A stretch of 53,902 bases of DNA from a virus: IMG/VR virus record IMGVR_UViG_3300033463_000182, positions 1 through 53,902 of that record; one strand, given 5' to 3'. The notes under the pieces are model-generated. The model saw nothing but the letters and a program-made list of their open reading frames with translations. It was not told where the DNA came from and made no database searches. A program made the position numbers and the translations under genes. This document shows, in pieces, positions 28,810 to 34,947 of the stretch; position 1 is the first letter of the stretch, and every line of letters starts with the position of its first letter.

Positions 28810-29172
28810 TTAATCCGCGCCGTCGCGCAGTTCTTGATAGTTGTCCGGCGGCCCCGGCGGCGGCATCCAGAAAACGCCCTCCGCCATTTCCGCGACCAGG
28901 TGCCATCCCCTCATGTGGATTTCGCCCCATTTGTCCCTGATGATTACGCAATTCTGCGGGTCTGCGTCCCGGCGCGTCGGCGGCTTTATCGCGGCGTCGA
29001 TCCAGCCCTCCGGGATTTCCTGCCAATATACATTGAATCGGTTATCCCGCGCCTTTTGCGTGTTCGTGACCATCACCCTTTGAAAAACGTGCCATATCAG
29101 GACAGGCCGCGCCTCCTCCGGCTTCTCCGCAATCGGACAGCTTTGTATGTCAAGCCATCCGTTATTGCCCAT
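28810..29172 (-). CDS. Hypothetical protein (DUF551-like?)
   Basis: 120-aa ORF. Confidence 0.3.
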   Translation of the reverse strand: MGNNGWLDIQSCPIAEKPEEARPVLIWHVFQRVMVTNTQKARDNRFNVYWQEIPEGWIDAAIKPPTRRDADPQNCVIIRDKWGEIHMRGWHLVAEMAEGVFWMPPPGPPDNYQELRDGAD

Positions 29173-29437
29173 CCTTCACCGCGTCCTCTGGTACTTCCAC
29201 GACGATGCCCCGCTTTTTCAGCTTGTCCCTCCAGATGGCTTGCGTCATGGCGCTGCAATGGCTCATGGCGTCCGCCCACGTCGGGAAGCGTTTGTGCAGC
29301 TTGTAAAACTGGTTCTGATAATACAGGCTGTCCCTGTCGTGCGGATCGCGCTCGTCGTGCTTCGTCGCGCAGACGGGGCACGTCCCCGGCCCCGGCGCGG
29401 TGATCCTGATTTCCTCCATGCTGTCGGTTGGACGCAT
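29162..29437 (-). CDS. Hypothetical protein
   Basis: 91-aa ORF with CPVC and an RBS GGAGGGAG. Confidence 0.4.
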   Translation of the reverse strand: MRPTDSMEEIRITAPGPGTCPVCATKHDERDPHDRDSLYYQNQFYKLHKRFPTWADAMSHCSAMTQAIWRDKLKKRGIVVEVPEDAVKDGQ

Positions 29438-29466: not shown

Positions 29467-29488
29467 TGCCGGTCTTTCCCGGCTGCCA
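29467..29488 (-). repeat. Conserved hairpin repeat, copy 1 (GCCGG-N6-CCGGC core)
   Basis: tgccggtctttcccggctgcca; near-identical copies at 29789 and 30245. Confidence 0.8.
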
Positions 29489-29710
29489 GACAGAGAAAAC
29501 GGCCTCTTGGTTGGCTGTCGCAACCGCAATTACAGCGTGCCGCTTGAGGGGGATCGTTCAGGACTTCCTACCCCATCCGACGTATTCCCTGACGGGCAAC
29601 GATATTGCACCAGCACCGGCTGGGAATCGAACCGTGACCGGTTTGCAGAATCGGACTGCGCTTCACGTTGCCATAGCGTCCAGCTATGCCTCCGGGCGTC
29701 CACGGAGAAT

Positions 29711-29783
29711 TGGCGCGGGCGGCAGGGTACGGGCCTGCAACTGCCGATTTTGGAGATCGGGGCTTTCTATAAGCTACACCCAC
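29711..29783 (-). tRNA. Atypical tRNA-like gene, anticodon CCA (Trp) with encoded CCA end
   Basis: Hand fold: GTGGGTG-TA-GCTT-ATAGA-AAGC-C-CCGAT-CTCCAAA-ATCGG-CAGTT-GCAGG-CCCGTAC-CCTGC-CGCCCGC-G-CCA (73 nt). Two G-U pairs in the acceptor stem, a 5-nt D loop without GG, and a non-canonical T loop. Confidence 0.45.
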
Positions 29784-29788
29784 ATGGA

Positions 29789-29810
29789 TGCCGGTCTTTC
29801 CCGGCTGTCA
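29789..29810 (-). repeat. Conserved hairpin repeat, copy 2
   Basis: tgccggtctttcccggctgtca, 6 nt upstream (minus sense) of the tRNA-Trp-like element. Confidence 0.8.
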
Positions 29811-29817
29811 GTCCGCG

Positions 29818-30117
29818 TTATTTGGACATCGCTTTGAGAAGATCAGCCAGCGGGTTATTATCTTCTCGGATGTACTTTTTACCCTCGCGCATGGCATGGG
29901 CAATCAGGGACGAAGCCATCAGCGCGCCGCTTCCGGCGATGTGTGCGGCGAGATCAATGTTGGATATTGCGTGCAGGCAAACCGTACCGCCTTTTCCTTG
30001 ATTGGCGATGATGGCAAAGCCGTCACACTCTACCCCCCCCCGCAGCGTTTCGTCGATTTCGTTGCCCTTCTCGTCCCCGACGATCTCAACCTTGATGCGA
30101 TAGATCGGATTTTCCAT
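29818..30117 (-). CDS. Hypothetical protein containing a G9 homopolymer
   Basis: 99 aa, AGGAGGCCAAAACT-ATG start. G9 (C9 on +, 30033-30041) encodes RGG. Flanked by tRNA-like elements. Confidence 0.5.
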   Translation of the reverse strand: MENPIYRIKVEIVGDEKGNEIDETLRGGVECDGFAIIANQGKGGTVCLHAISNIDLAAHIAGSGALMASSLIAHAMREGKKYIREDNNPLADLLKAMSK

Positions 30118-30158
30118 AGTTTTGGCCTCCTGTTGTAGTATTTTTGCCCGTGTCGGGC

Positions 30159-30240
30159 TGGTGCGGACGCCCGGATTTGAACCGGGAGCGGCGTATTTCA
30201 GCCGTTTGCCATTGGCGATCTTTCAGCCAATCACGCCCGC
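30159..30240 (-). ncRNA. tRNA-like RNA: canonical acceptor stem, T arm and CCA, non-canonical body
   Basis: GCGGGCG...CCCGG-TTCAAAT-CCGGG-CGTCCGC-A-CCA. The body is two similar hairpins, TTGGC-UGAAAGAUC-GCCAA and CGGC-UGAAAUAC-GCCG. 82 nt. Confidence 0.4.
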
Positions 30241-30244
30241 ATGA

Positions 30245-30268
30245 TTGCCGGTCTATTTCCGGCTGTCA
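30245..30268 (-). repeat. Conserved hairpin repeat, copy 3
   Basis: ttgccggtctatttccggctgtca, 6 nt upstream (minus sense) of the 82-nt tRNA-like RNA. Confidence 0.75.
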
Positions 30269-30321
30269 CGCTTCTTTGTTCTTTTGTGTAGTTGCTTTTG
30301 AAGCGTAGCGCACCAATCTAC

Positions 30322-30456
30322 TGGAGCGACGGGGCGGAATCGAACCGCCCAGGCGTTGCGTTCGCGTGATTTTCGGGTTTTTATTTCAAAGGAGGTAACT
30401 CTGAAACAGCATGAAGAAGGTCTTATCATCACGCACGCCCGCAATCCTGCCGCCGC
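30322..30456 (-). ncRNA. tRNA-like 3' module (T arm + acceptor + CCA) with a distant 5' acceptor partner; possibly a 135-nt structured RNA
   Basis: GGCGG-TTCGATT-CCGCC-CCGTCGC-T-CCA at 30322-30349. The only complementary 5' strand, GCGGCGG, is at 30450-30456. The interior carries GUUACCUCCUUUGAA (anti-SD-like). Confidence 0.3.
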
Positions 30457-30460
30457 ATGG

Positions 30461-30751
30461 TCAGTCGTACACTTCCCGCAAGTTCTTTTCGCACCAGTTC
30501 AGCGCCAGGTTATAGCGCAGCGTCGCGCAGTACACCAATTCGCCGTTGGCGTCGATCCGCACAACCTCCGCCGTCCGCCTCCGATCCCCGGAAAAGCCGA
30601 CAAAGATTGCATTGTCCCAGCGCGTCGCGCCCTGCCGCCGCTTTGTGGCCGTCCACACGCTTATCATGGTGTTCAGCTTCCCGTCCTTCACAAATTCCGC
30701 CAGCGCCCGTAGCTGATCCGGCGTGGCGATGTGAAAACGCTTTGCGGCCAT
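30461..30751 (-). CDS. Hypothetical protein
   Basis: 96-aa ORF. Confidence 0.4.
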   Translation of the reverse strand: MAAKRFHIATPDQLRALAEFVKDGKLNTMISVWTATKRRQGATRWDNAIFVGFSGDRRRTAEVVRIDANGELVYCATLRYNLALNWCEKNLREVYD

Positions 30752-32678: not shown

Positions 32679-33260
32679 ATGAAGAAACTAATTGCCCTGT
32701 TCCTCGTCGCCCTGATGATCCCTTGCGTCGCCGTGGCGGAATCCACGAACACGCGCGGCCTGGTGGAATTTCTTGAATTGTATTCCTCGCGCTTTGCGGC
32801 CTACGCCTGCCAGAATGGCCTTGAATTTGACGCGAGCACCTATTCGGCCCTTCCGCCGTATAAATCCGGCGACTACCTTGTGTTTGAATCCAGCGCCGGG
32901 AGCATAGGTGTATATCCCGGATCGTATGACATTCACGACGTAACCATGACCTTCTACTCCATGACCGACGACGACGCGGACAATGAGCTTTTCGCCACGA
33001 GCTGCATCATGGCGATTTCCGCCCTGGAATTTGATGCTTCTTATGAAAAAGGCCCATCCCTTGCAAGGAAGTCCGCGACGGACGATGCCGTGCGGATTTT
33101 CGATGAAGAAATAGGCGGCAGGCTGGAAGAATCGCTCGCGCAGGCCATTGAAACAGGAAAGAGGGTCTATGTCTGCTCCTGCAATTATGATTATTACATC
33201 GACTACTTTGTTTCCGGCGCGCACGAATTTGTATATCTGATTGCGGAAGAACGCAAATAA
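32679..33260 (+). CDS. Signal-peptide protein in the lysogeny module (moron candidate)
   Basis: MKKLIALFLVALMIPCVAVAES... signal-like N-terminus; lies between the repressor and the integrase. The start could instead be 32655. Confidence 0.5.
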   Translation: MKKLIALFLVALMIPCVAVAESTNTRGLVEFLELYSSRFAAYACQNGLEFDASTYSALPPYKSGDYLVFESSAGSIGVYPGSYDIHDVTMTFYSMTDDDADNELFATSCIMAISALEFDASYEKGPSLARKSATDDAVRIFDEEIGGRLEESLAQAIETGKRVYVCSCNYDYYIDYFVSGAHEFVYLIAEERK

Positions 33261-33372
33261 GAAATGCCCGCCCCGGTTTCCCAGGACGGGCCGCAAAATC
33301 AGCCAACACCACTTGTCCGATTTGCTATTTTATTATAGCGCGGAGAACGTGAAAAGTCAAGGAGTTTCGCGC

Positions 33373-34947
33373 ATGAAAGCTGTAATTTACGCACGCTATT
33401 CTTCCCACGGCCAGACGGAGCAATCCATCGAAGGACAGCTCCGCGATAATTACGCCTGGGCCAAGCAGCAGGGGATCACCGTCATAGCGGAATACATAGA
33501 CAGGGCCTTGACCGGCACCAAGGATCAGCGCCCGGATTTTCAGCGCATGATCGAGGACGCGGCCAAGCGTCAGTTTGAAATGGTTATCGTCTGGAAGCTG
33601 GACAGGTTTGCCCGCAACCGTTACGACAGCGCGATCTACAAGGCCAAGCTCAAGAAATACGGCGTCAAGGTGGTGTCCGTCAAGGAGAACATCACCGACA
33701 GCCCGGAGGGCATCATCCTGGAAGGGCTGCTGGAAAGCATGGCGGAGTATTACAGCGCCAACCTGTCACAGAATATCCGGCGCGGCCAGCGTGAGAGCAT
33801 GGCGAAGGGAACATACTGCGGCGGCCCTGTACCCTACGGCTACAAGGTGGCGAATAAGAAGCTCGTCATTGACGACAAGGCCGCAGAAGTGATCCGCTAT
33901 GTGTTTGACCAGTACGCCCAGGGCGTCCCCAAGAAAGAGATCATCGACGAATTGAACCGGCGCGGCGTCCGTGGAAAGACTGGCAAGCCGCTTTCCATCA
34001 CGGCATTTCAGCGCGCCTTGCCGAATCCTGCCTATGTCGGGCGCTTCACCTATAAGGGTGAAGTGATCCCCGGCCTTTCCGAGCGCATCATAGACGACGA
34101 CACTTTCCAGAAAGTGCAGGAGCGCTTGAAGCTCACCGCCCGCGCGCCTGCTGCGAACAAGGCAAAGGTGGAATATCTCTTGCAGGGGAAAGCCTACTGC
34201 GGCCATTGCGGTGCGCCCATGATCGGGGAATCTGGCCGGTCACGGAACGGGGAAACGTACAATTACTATGCTTGCGCGGACAAAAAGAAGAAGCATACCT
34301 GTAAGAAGAAGAACGAGCGCAAGGATTTTATCGAATGGTATATTGTCGAACAGACGATGCAGTATATCTTGACGCCCGCCCGCGCTGCCCGCGTCGCAAA
34401 GGCCGTCGTGCAGGAGTACAAAAAAGAGTTTTCCGATAGCCGCGTGGACGATCTGGACAAAGCCTTGAAGCAGATAGACCGCGAGCTGGACAAGCTGGTG
34501 GACGCCCTGGTGGACAGCCCCAAGGTAGCGCACAAGAAAATCTACGCCCGCATGGAAACGCTGGAAGCGCAGAAAGCGGAAATGGAAACAGACCTTGCCC
34601 GCCTGCGCATCGCCCAGGAAATCCAGCTCACCGAAACAGAAGTGCGCGCATGGCTAAAGAAATTCTGTACCGGCGATCCGCTGGATGAGGAATTTCGCAA
34701 GCGCATCATCGACGTGTTTATCAATGCCGTCTATCTCTACGACGATAAGCTCATTACCTTCTACAACATACGCGGCGGCAAACAGGTTTCCTATATCGAC
34801 CTTATCAATTCCGCCGACCTTCCCGCCCCGGAGTGTTCGGATTTGAAAGCGTATGCTCCACCAAACGCATCCAAATCCGAACCGCAATACGTCTTTGTAA
34901 ATGGCGTGTTCGGCTGCATCTTCCATAGGAAGAAGGACGAGGATTGA
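33373..34947 (+). CDS. Large serine recombinase (integrase)
   Basis: MKAVIYARYSSHGQ...SIEGQ resolvase catalytic domain, recombinase domain, a zinc-ribbon region (CGHCG...C..C) and a coiled coil. AAGGAG 9 nt upstream of ATG 33373. Confidence 0.9.
   Translation: MKAVIYARYSSHGQTEQSIEGQLRDNYAWAKQQGITVIAEYIDRALTGTKDQRPDFQRMIEDAAKRQFEMVIVWKLDRFARNRYDSAIYKAKLKKYGVKVVSVKENITDSPEGIILEGLLESMAEYYSANLSQNIRRGQRESMAKGTYCGGPVPYGYKVANKKLVIDDKAAEVIRYVFDQYAQGVPKKEIIDELNRRGVRGKTGKPLSITAFQRALPNPAYVGRFTYKGEVIPGLSERIIDDDTFQKVQERLKLTARAPAANKAKVEYLLQGKAYCGHCGAPMIGESGRSRNGETYNYYACADKKKKHTCKKKNERKDFIEWYIVEQTMQYILTPARAARVAKAVVQEYKKEFSDSRVDDLDKALKQIDRELDKLVDALVDSPKVAHKKIYARMETLEAQKAEMETDLARLRIAQEIQLTETEVRAWLKKFCTGDPLDEEFRKRIIDVFINAVYLYDDKLITFYNIRGGKQVSYIDLINSADLPAPECSDLKAYAPPNASKSEPQYVFVNGVFGCIFHRKKDED

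Follow-up and report, generated by a model that had tools for sequence, protein, structure and literature searches.

Candidate RNA array of tRNA-shaped units and leader hairpins in the early operon of a temperate phage

Introduction

Bacteriophage transfer RNA (tRNA) genes are usually taken to assist codon usage or to replace tRNAs that host defences destroy. The tRNA region of phage T4 also encodes RNA species 1 and 2, small stable RNAs that are co-processed with the tRNAs. Here we describe a stretch of approximately 1 kb (29467-30456, minus strand) in the virus record IMGVR_UViG_3300033463_000182. The record is complete (53.9 kb) and has direct terminal repeats, and its full length of 53,902 nucleotides is called the window below. 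The 1-kb stretch is best read as a mostly untranslated RNA array that a temperate phage carries within its leftward early operon; it holds a tRNA-Trp, further tRNA-shaped RNAs, and three copies of a short hairpin that we call the leader hairpin. Like the T4 tRNA clusters, it combines phage-encoded tRNAs with non-tRNA small RNAs in what would be a common transcript matured by the tRNA-processing enzymes of the host. Unlike the T4 clusters, it sits between protein genes of a temperate early operon, its non-tRNA members are top halves of tRNAs with replaced bodies, and each unit has a conserved leader hairpin, a feature undescribed for T4.

Short tRNA mimics within longer transcripts are also known outside tRNA clusters. 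The mascRNA at the 3' end of MALAT1 and the precursor of the c4 RNA of phages P1 and P7 are tRNA-like processing elements. The t-elements of plant mitochondria are likewise tRNA-like processing elements (Forner et al. 2007, PMC1920247). All of these mimic an acceptor stem and T arm within a longer transcript and are cut by RNase P or RNase Z, which defines the ends of messenger RNAs (mRNAs) or noncoding RNAs (ncRNAs). The array resembles them in that mimics of an acceptor stem and T arm are embedded between genes of the same strand. It differs in its encoded CCA ends, its diverse and covarying bodies, its turnover of cassettes and the sequence-specific hairpin upstream, and cleavage in the array is putative.

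A tRNA-like module for stability or processing is joined to a module with a functional loop in bacterial Y RNAs (YrlA type) and in engineered "tRNA scaffold" RNAs. The array shares this modular design, while membership in the Y RNAs is not supported: no Rfam Y RNA family matches, and no Rsr/Ro60 gene lies nearby. Most of the tRNA-shaped genes in the array cannot decode, yet their stems are clearly selected.

Results and Discussion

Elements of the array

A first-pass annotation made from the letters alone had folded element 1 (Table 1) as a 73-nt cloverleaf with anticodon CCA and odd D and T loops. Its coordinates and loops were found as described, and two programs agree on its nature: ARAGORN at default settings calls tRNA-Trp(cca), and the Rfam tRNA model (RF00005) gives 41.7 bits, above its gathering score of 29. 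The anticodon arm is regular, with a 5-bp stem, the 7-nt loop CUCCAAA, U33 and a purine at position 37. The elbow is irregular; the D loop AUAGA has no GG, and the T loop CCCGUAC has neither UUC nor A58. Bacterial tryptophanyl-tRNA synthetase recognizes anticodon CCA and the discriminator G73 as identity features. Both are present in element 1, where a G precedes the CCA end, and charging with tryptophan is predicted. Element 1 is a real but structurally atypical tRNA-Trp. Suppressor or recoding tRNAs, which had been suggested for the array, find no candidate here, as the sole decoder has the ordinary Trp anticodon with G73, and elements 2 and 3 have no anticodon arm.

Element 2 had been described as having a perfect acceptor stem. 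Its length, T arm and CCA were confirmed at the expected site, while the 7-bp acceptor stem includes one G-U pair. The T arm CCCGG-TTCAAAT-CCGGG, with a standard T loop (UUCAAAU), is followed by A and CCA. The D and anticodon arms are replaced by two hairpins with GAAAGA-type purine loops, 9 nt and 8 nt long, on stems that are not those of an anticodon arm. Only the -ps80 setting lets ARAGORN detect element 2, and the call has a 2-nt "anticodon". Unaided folding yields both the acceptor stem and the T arm, with a z-score of -3.1 for the fold. We found five distinct homologues with 90-93% identity, two of them in rumen Clostridiales metagenome-assembled genomes (MAGs). Among these homologues the acceptor stem is paired in 100% of the tabulated cells, pair 3 being G-C, U-A or A-U, and the G-U wobble sits at either pair 4 or pair 5. 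No change occurs in the first inner hairpin or in the T arm. The string UGAAA had been taken for a tRNA-Phe anticodon loop, and it is not conserved as such in relatives; because their second inner loop is GAAAGA-like, we read UGAAA as part of a purine loop of the leader-hairpin type. A small hairpin that directly follows the CCA end is conserved in relatives L007 and L008, and in L015 its stem covaries to GCCAG/CTGGC.

Element 3 had been noticed as a module of T arm, acceptor strand and CCA with a distant 5' partner. These parts are present and form a complete 135-nt unit, in which the module at 30322-30349 pairs with the 5' strand GCGGCGG at 30450-30456. The acceptor stem is GCGGCGG/CCGTCGC, and the T arm GGCGG-TTCGATT-CCGCC has a standard T loop (UUCGAUU). 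The body is a three-way structure of a long-range helix, GGGCGU/ACGCCU, and two hairpins, again with no anticodon arm. The minimum free energy (MFE) fold yields the acceptor stem and T arm unaided (z-score -3.58). A string in the interior, GUUACCUCCUUUGA, had been compared with the core of the anti-Shine-Dalgarno (anti-SD) sequence; it does resemble it, and it forms a 10-bp hairpin with the 7-nt loop UUACCUC, which is AUACCUC in L016. The homologue at L016:1277-1419 retains the structure at 77% identity, with three compensatory pairs, namely acceptor pair 3 (G-C to U-A) and two in the GGGCGU/ACGCCU helix. Pattern scans for element 3 gave one additional viral copy, in L261, where the downstream context is different, and metagenome matches that were all by chance. 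Neither element 2 nor element 3 has a D arm, and each is represented by few independent lineages. Because other hairpins stand in for their D and anticodon arms, elements 2 and 3 cannot decode.

Several minor features touch element 3. The string GCGGGCG at 30436-30442 is a second copy of the acceptor 5' strand and pairs inside the element. A small open reading frame (ORF) on the plus strand at 30411-30515, behind a perfect Shine-Dalgarno sequence, was considered and discarded; a 5-nt indel in L016 shifts its frame while the nucleotides stay conserved. A Clostridia MAG from water deer (L248) carries a hairpin-led 140-nt unit whose body contains TTCTTCATG and AACCTCTCTTTA, recalling conserved blocks of element 3. 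This unit may belong, as a distant member, to the payload family of element 3.

The conserved spacer RNA holds a T-arm-like hairpin, GCAG-UCCGAUU-CUGC, at 29645-29659, as well as element 4. Element 4 had been reported as a fourth, degenerate motif. It is indeed present, and the evidence does not bear out its degeneracy. Homologues of the spacer were found in three MAG contigs (L140, L171 and L206) at 76-81% identity. The consensus fold of the four sequences has 43 pairs, 7 of them with a compensatory change (for example GCAG/CUGC to GGGG/CCCC), and GGUUCGAUUCC is conserved in 4/4. Relatives of the L008 type have a short form of the spacer without the T-loop part. Because element 4 is conserved with covarying surroundings in four sequences, we regard it as a structured-RNA module and not as a decayed tRNA.

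A covariance-model comparison had been proposed for all four elements. Element 1 passes it, as given above, and elements 2, 3 and 4 give no match to the Rfam tRNA model even at E<=10. Two alternative readings of these elements were considered. The first is that elements 2-4 are functionless decayed tRNA genes or attP-type fragments. tRNA 3' halves are typical of the attP sites of tyrosine integrases, and partial tRNA-like 5' strands do follow some hairpins in relatives (for example at L008:2884). Yet both acceptor strands are present here and covary, four lineages have retained element 4 and the adjacent hairpin with compensatory changes, and units at 77-93% identity occur in different genomic contexts. 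The integrase of this phage is a large serine recombinase, not a tyrosine integrase, and is encoded at 33241-34947, 3 kb from the array. We therefore rejected this reading on the covariation of both strands and the type of integrase, and consider it highly improbable. The relatives keep their structures through compensatory base changes, which argues that these are genuine, selected non-canonical tRNA-like RNAs, as first proposed, and not drifting remnants. With this outcome the elements also pass the refutation test set in the first-pass annotation.

The second reading joins elements 3 and 2 into a phage transfer-messenger RNA (tmRNA). At -ps80, ARAGORN does report such an RNA, 284 nt long and spanning 30442-30159, with a tag (ATTQKNKEA) taken from the A-rich linker, and Rfam tmRNA models give weak partial matches of approximately 13 bits covering only the T arms. 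The best model scores 13-14 bits against gathering scores of 47-84, and the 5' strand used by ARAGORN, GCGGGCG, pairs in a covarying helix inside element 3. Relatives do not conserve the tag region, and L261 lacks it, with unrelated sequence in the place of the linker; the linker is not conserved upstream of element 2 homologues either. Elements 2 and 3 also occur independently of one another in relatives. These comparative data led us to reject a tmRNA, which is extremely unlikely.

The leader hairpin

Three copies of the leader hairpin had been reported, 6 nt upstream of elements 1 and 2 and upstream of a gene start. All three were found at these sites, while the consensus string given for them does not fit copy 3, which has the 7-nt loop AAATAGA. 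Homologues of copy 3 in relatives have GAAAGA or GAGAGA loops. The pattern GCCGG-N5-8-CCGGC matches 6 times in the window against 1.3 expected, and only the three copies have the TGRCA flank.

Table 1. Features of the array and adjoining genes, with positions in the window
Feature	Position	Strand	Details
96-aa early gene	30461..30751	-	stop codon 4 nt before element 3; conserved in relatives
Element 3	30322..30456	-	135 nt, discriminator U, CCA; starts 4 nt after stop codon of 96-aa gene; MFE fold, homologue
A-rich linker	30269..30321	-	element 3 to next leader hairpin
Leader hairpin copy 3	30246..30268	-	UGACA + GCCGG-AAAUAGA-CCGGC + A; stem-loop 30247-30263; ends 6 nt before element 2
Element 2	30159..30240	-	82 nt, discriminator A, encoded CCA; fold, homologues
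Small hairpin GCCCG-ACA-CGGGC	30146..30158	-	directly 3' of element 2 CCA; A-run and ribosome-binding site of 99-aa gene next
99-aa gene	29818..30117	-	flanked by tRNA-shaped units; anchor used to find relatives
Leader hairpin copy 2	29789..29810	-	UGACA + GCCGG-GAAAGA-CCGGC + A; stem-loop 29790-29805; ends 6 nt before tRNA-Trp
Element 1, tRNA-Trp(CCA)	29711..29783	-	73 nt, G73, encoded CCA; ARAGORN, Rfam
Conserved structured spacer RNA	29490..29710	-	~220 nt; homologues, consensus fold
Element 4 (GGTTCGATTCC / GGUUCGAUUCC)	29623-29633	-	inside spacer RNA
Leader hairpin copy 1	29467..29488	-	UGGCA + GCCGG-GAAAGA-CCGGC + A; stem-loop 29468-29483; 30 nt upstream of ATG of 91-aa gene
91-aa gene	29162..29437	-	end of array; ATG at 29437

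Beyond the window, the hairpin has the form C-UGRCA, a 5-bp stem closed by G-C, a GAAAGA loop and then A. The exact pattern TGRCDGCCSGGAAAGACSGGC was found in at least 119 viral contigs and at least 120 genome contigs, and these counts from collection scans are lower bounds. The genome contigs listed span Proteobacteria, Bacteroidota, Firmicutes, Spirochaetota, Actinobacteria, Cyanobacteria, Planctomycetota and other phyla. BLAST searches found perfect copies of 22-24 nt in unannotated intergenic DNA of cultured phages, namely mEp390 (E. coli), Pokken (Stenotrophomonas), Alexa (Acinetobacter), Medea1 (Pseudomonas), ESP2949-1 (Cronobacter) and P7641 (Klebsiella). The motif occurs in 5/5426 complete E. 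coli genomes and is therefore prophage-borne and not a host repeat.

Several observations indicate that the structure of the hairpin matters. Among the relaxed copies listed, which were not preselected by the search pattern, all five stem pairs form in 41/100 sites that have both the UGRCN flank and a GANAGA loop, compared with 36/3773 sites without the flank. More than 25 distinct stem sequences occur, always with G-C as the pair closing the loop, and the two degenerate stem positions are complementary in 233 of the 236 exact-pattern sites listed. In these 236 sites C is preferred at position -1 (53%) and A after the stem (75%). Loop variants are GAAAGA, GAGAGA and GACAGA, with six bases, or loops of seven bases. 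Among the listed matches with decisive flanking coding density, 37 viral loci have the hairpin on the coding strand and 5 have it on the other strand. Rfam searches at permissive thresholds, covering the window and three cultured-phage loci, gave no family that covers the hairpin or the tRNA-shaped units, and a literature search by 16-mer sequences and by words found nothing on the hairpin. From these sequence comparisons we take the hairpin to be a sequence-specific RNA signal that phages of many phyla share.

One simple possibility is that the hairpin is a promoter, with TGACA as its -35 box, or a terminator, and that each unit is its own transcription unit. TGACA does resemble a -35 hexamer, and GTGACA-17-AATCAT at 30269-30241 scores 9/12 promoter-like matches in a scan. 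Yet a -10-like hexamer at a spacer of 16-18 is found in only 5/236 listed sites, the base before TGACA is C in 53% and T in 12% of them, and a start 7 nt past such a -10 box would land inside the acceptor stem. The stems covary, unlike a promoter spacer. A T-run follows the hairpin in 28/186 listed sites (~15%), as a terminator would have it, and follows 0/3 copies in the window. Our sequence scan turned up no convincing promoter or terminator inside the array. We rejected the sigma-70 promoter for the scarcity of -10 boxes and the covarying stems, and the terminator, as regards the copies in the window, for their missing T-runs; we regard this possibility as very unlikely.

Linkage of the hairpin to tRNA-shaped units

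For the comparison with tRNA-shaped units we used a strict definition that requires 7/7 acceptor pairs, 5/5 T-stem pairs, a consensus T loop and a start 2-10 nt after the hairpin. Such a unit follows 46 of the 229 distinct hairpin sites listed, compared with 5 of 2290 control positions (~90x). Eighteen of the 46 are longer than 100 nt, oversized like element 3, and several of the oversized units combine a normal D arm with a multi-hairpin insert where the anticodon arm would be. About a third or more of the hairpin-led units escape ARAGORN and Rfam.

Under looser criteria, the gap between hairpin and unit peaks at 4-6 nt, and the base at position -1 is U in 25 of the 37 viral cases listed. Bacterial RNase P prefers U at -1. 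The U at -1 and the gap pattern match the leader preference of RNase P, and the U at -1 points, indirectly, to putative endonucleolytic cleavage at the unit ends.

Two further observations concern hairpin-led tRNA genes. Hairpin-led tRNA-Trp(CCA) genes, likewise with non-standard D arms, occur in unrelated viral contigs (L067:176-254, L068:605-681 and L130:601-674). The commonest among 23 hairpin-led tRNAs called by ARAGORN at default settings are Leu(CAA), Pro(UGG) and Trp(CCA).

Relatives and cassette exchange

A BLAST search of the phage database with the whole region as query gave no match, and single-protein pattern scans of viral contigs for relatives found nothing. A homologous-protein search with the 99-aa (amino acid) protein of the array gave 27 homologues with 51-93% identity. 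The contigs of these relatives share a gene order of a helix-turn-helix (HTH) protein, proteins of 72 and 166 aa, DUF1064, 96 aa, a gap, 99 aa, a second gap, 91 aa, 120 aa and DUF3102. Both gaps are hot spots of RNA genes, with a content that varies by phage. It includes canonical tRNA-Ser(GCT), Thr(CGT) and Gly(TCC) with 53-73 bits, non-canonical units called by ARAGORN alone, and tRNA-shaped units of 80-143 nt missed by both programs. The same leader hairpin lies 5-7 nt upstream of almost every unit in these gaps. In relatives such as L008, the module of spacer and 29467 hairpin precedes a tRNA-shaped unit rather than a gene.

Comparison of close relatives reveals how the content changes. 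Relative to L008, L009 has an insertion of 260 nt, and L011 is without a 242-nt block consisting of hairpin, tRNA-Ser and spacer. The breakpoints in L009 and L011 are all at the start of the hairpin motif, with flanks that are 99-100% identical. In L010, a different tRNA-shaped body sits between the same hairpin and the same trailer. At the DNA level, the hairpin thus also serves as the junction for cassette exchange. PeSL units, a promoter plus a stem-loop, reportedly described by Arbiol et al. in 2010, are said to flank protein genes in T4-type phages. The leader hairpin is like them in that short repeated stem-loop modules flank small cassettes that related phages have gained, lost or swapped exactly at the modules. 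It is unlike them in that the module is not a promoter and flanks RNA genes.

Two minor observations come from the same loci. At L008:2884, GCTGCTG stands right after the hairpin and 224 nt before the 3' strand of tRNA-Thr, which looks like a remnant of cassette insertion. A conserved, ORF-poor and G+C-rich stretch of approximately 370 nt extends from a tRNA-shaped unit to tRNA-Thr/Gly in L008:2666-3033, L009:2926-3293 and L010:1901-2277. It has a variant hairpin, GCTCG-GACAGA-CGGGT, is absent from L011 and gives no Rfam match at the gathering threshold. This stretch of L008, L009 and L010 may be another structured RNA.

Processing of the early transcript

The explanation that we favour, with moderate confidence, is that the array provides tRNA-type punctuation of the early transcript, which would release non-decoding RNAs built on a tRNA scaffold, with the hairpin marking or assisting processing or protecting the upstream fragment. 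The operon would be transcribed as a single RNA, and the tRNA-maturation enzymes of the host would excise each tRNA-shaped unit. RNase P would cut the 5' end after a U, 6 nt past the leader hairpin, and the 3' end would be trimmed back to the encoded CCA. The early mRNA would thereby be split into segments whose new ends bear small hairpins. The upstream fragment would end in the leader hairpin plus 6 nt, and the fragment downstream of element 2 would start with the covarying GCCCG-ACA-CGGGC hairpin just before the ribosome-binding site (RBS). The stable non-decoding RNAs thus released would display loops of the GAAAGA type (element 2) or an anti-SD-like loop (element 3). The leader hairpin would most likely mark or assist processing, or protect the upstream fragment. 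Among the functions proposed in the first-pass annotation, processing signals fit the context best, with units placed within the operon, a hairpin 6 nt upstream, U at -1 and an encoded CCA.

A number of points weigh against this explanation. Just 20-31% of the listed hairpin sites precede a tRNA-shaped unit, and in the window itself the hairpin at 29467-29488 precedes a gene. Cultured lambdoid phages and an E. coli prophage have the hairpin in early-operon leaders without tRNAs. Element 1 is without the elbow nucleotides that are normally used by RNase P and other tRNA-binding factors. A simple protective cap does not account for a GAAAGA loop and a UGRCA flank that stay invariant from phylum to phylum, and the effector roles of the released RNAs are guesses. 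Because many copies adjoin no tRNA-shaped unit, the function of the hairpin cannot be limited to that of an RNase P leader.

The genomic surroundings of the listed copies bear on a rival function. The commonest neighbour family is a CI-type repressor (HTH_3 + Peptidase_S24), which lies within 3 kb in 27 listed loci, mostly on the opposite strand, and thereby locates the hairpin in temperate early operons; no RNA enzyme recurs among the neighbour families of the listed loci. In mEp390 and in an E. coli prophage the hairpin follows the repressor gene, within the early leftward leader. The prophage, in E. coli strain 23GD11002 (L269:2258-2680), has a PL-like promoter, TTGACC-17-TAATAT, after a repressor-like gene. 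Between this promoter and the first early-left gene, the leader contains three GAAAGA hairpins (2339, 2393 and 2495) and a different repeat, CGAGGAAAGACCAACG, in two copies, with no tRNA.

Because the hairpin sits in early leaders near CI-type repressors, a role as a processive antitermination or anti-Rho signal of the boxB/put type is a serious rival. The hairpin would then be read by a universal component such as RNA polymerase or a Nus factor. Placed ahead of untranslated or structured stretches such as tRNA arrays and leaders, it would keep early transcription from aborting, and the tRNA-shaped units would merely be protected. The boxB elements of lambda and P22 have a similar short G+C-rich stem of 5 bp and a purine-rich GA-type loop, comparable to the GANAGA loop, and act in temperate early operons; near-identical sequence across phyla would also suit a universal partner. 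The loop of boxB has 5 nt and that of the hairpin 6, however, and the range of the hairpin extends far beyond lambdoid enterobacterial phages. There is no boxA-like conserved sequence, with no information beyond position -3 in the 236 sites listed, and by inspection no N-like arginine-rich protein was seen in the window, its early operon or the two lambdoid examples. A single nut site per operon would suffice, yet several copies occur per operon and each cassette has its own. The tight spacing of 4-6 nt to tRNA 5' ends is not predicted by antitermination, and terminators after the hairpins of the E. coli prophage were only partly confirmed by a scan. We consider antitermination unlikely on this balance.

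A further rival, which is compatible with tRNA-type processing, concerns the released RNAs. The non-decoding RNAs could be anti-defence or takeover effectors, either decoys or sponges for anticodon nucleases, tRNA-modifying or CCA enzymes or EF-Tu, or scaffolds with payload loops, for example an anti-SD loop that masks an RBS. Some phage tRNAs are known to evade or neutralise defences that target tRNAs. In line with such a role, the bodies vary widely around a retained acceptor stem, T arm and CCA, and the units occupy a fast-changing accessory position with cassette turnover. Two lineages with 77% identity have both kept the loop UACCUC(C) of element 3, and the loops of element 2 share the hexamer GAAAGA with the leader hairpin. 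On the other side, the anti-SD-like loop shows no covariation with any particular RBS, including that of the adjacent gene, and gene starts are not enriched in GGAGGTAW. Units without an anticodon arm would also be poor decoys for anticodon nucleases. We hold an effector role to be a tentative possibility.

It is also possible, though speculative, that the UGRCA-stem-GAAAGA hairpin is an undescribed cross-phylum phage signal for a universal host machine and that the tRNA top half is a scaffold for small effector RNAs, with element 3 presenting an anti-SD loop. In one version of this idea, the hairpin might recruit the RNase P holoenzyme. This version comes from a resemblance to E. coli K-12 rnpB (L268) that was noticed post hoc. 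The conserved single-stranded parts of the hairpin, GACAG and GGAAAG(A)CCGG, are similar to the two strands around the catalytic P4 helix of RNase P RNA. The GGAAAGACCGG of the hairpin matches the CR-I/P4 strand GGAAAGUCCGG at rnpB position 63 in 10/11 positions, and GACAG of the flank, with CCGG after it, is similar to the other P4 strand, GACAGAACCCGG, at position 346. Shuffled rnpB reaches the 11-mer match in 21/2000 trials, and the comparison is post hoc.

If tRNA-type punctuation holds true, a class of phage ncRNAs and an RNA signal with a universal partner are missing from annotation pipelines. The array would also represent a natural tRNA-scaffold system for small RNAs, of interest to RNA engineers. 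Because the motif occurs in culturable phages with laboratory hosts, the function of the hairpin is directly testable.

Host lineage and neighbouring genes

The host lineage is rumen Clostridiales, judging from the distribution of homologues. Two rumen "uncultured Clostridiales" MAGs (L226 and L231) carry element 2 at 90-91% identity, and the Clostridiales MAG GCA_015055915.1 holds a syntenic relative. According to the list of ORFs, the minus-strand genes of the early operon are tightly packed down to approximately 27 kb.

The protein genes next to the RNA units are poorly characterized by homology. Pfam and PHROG gave no match for the 96-aa protein, its AlphaFold2 (AF2) model is weak, and no fold match was found. 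The 99-aa protein has no family match and no fold match, with an unusable AF2 model (pLDDT 44).

Within the 99-aa gene, a tract of nine G's (G9) at 30033-30041 on the minus strand encodes R-G-G(V). Exactly nine G's are preserved at the nucleotide level in relatives whose 99-aa proteins are just 55-65% identical; length variants of the tract would escape this comparison because every locus was fetched via intact proteins.

The gene thyX (Thy1), with a called length of 195-325 aa, lies downstream of a 102-aa gene in L007, L008, L009, L011 and L014. In that slot the window has just RNA genes, and the phage is without thyX.

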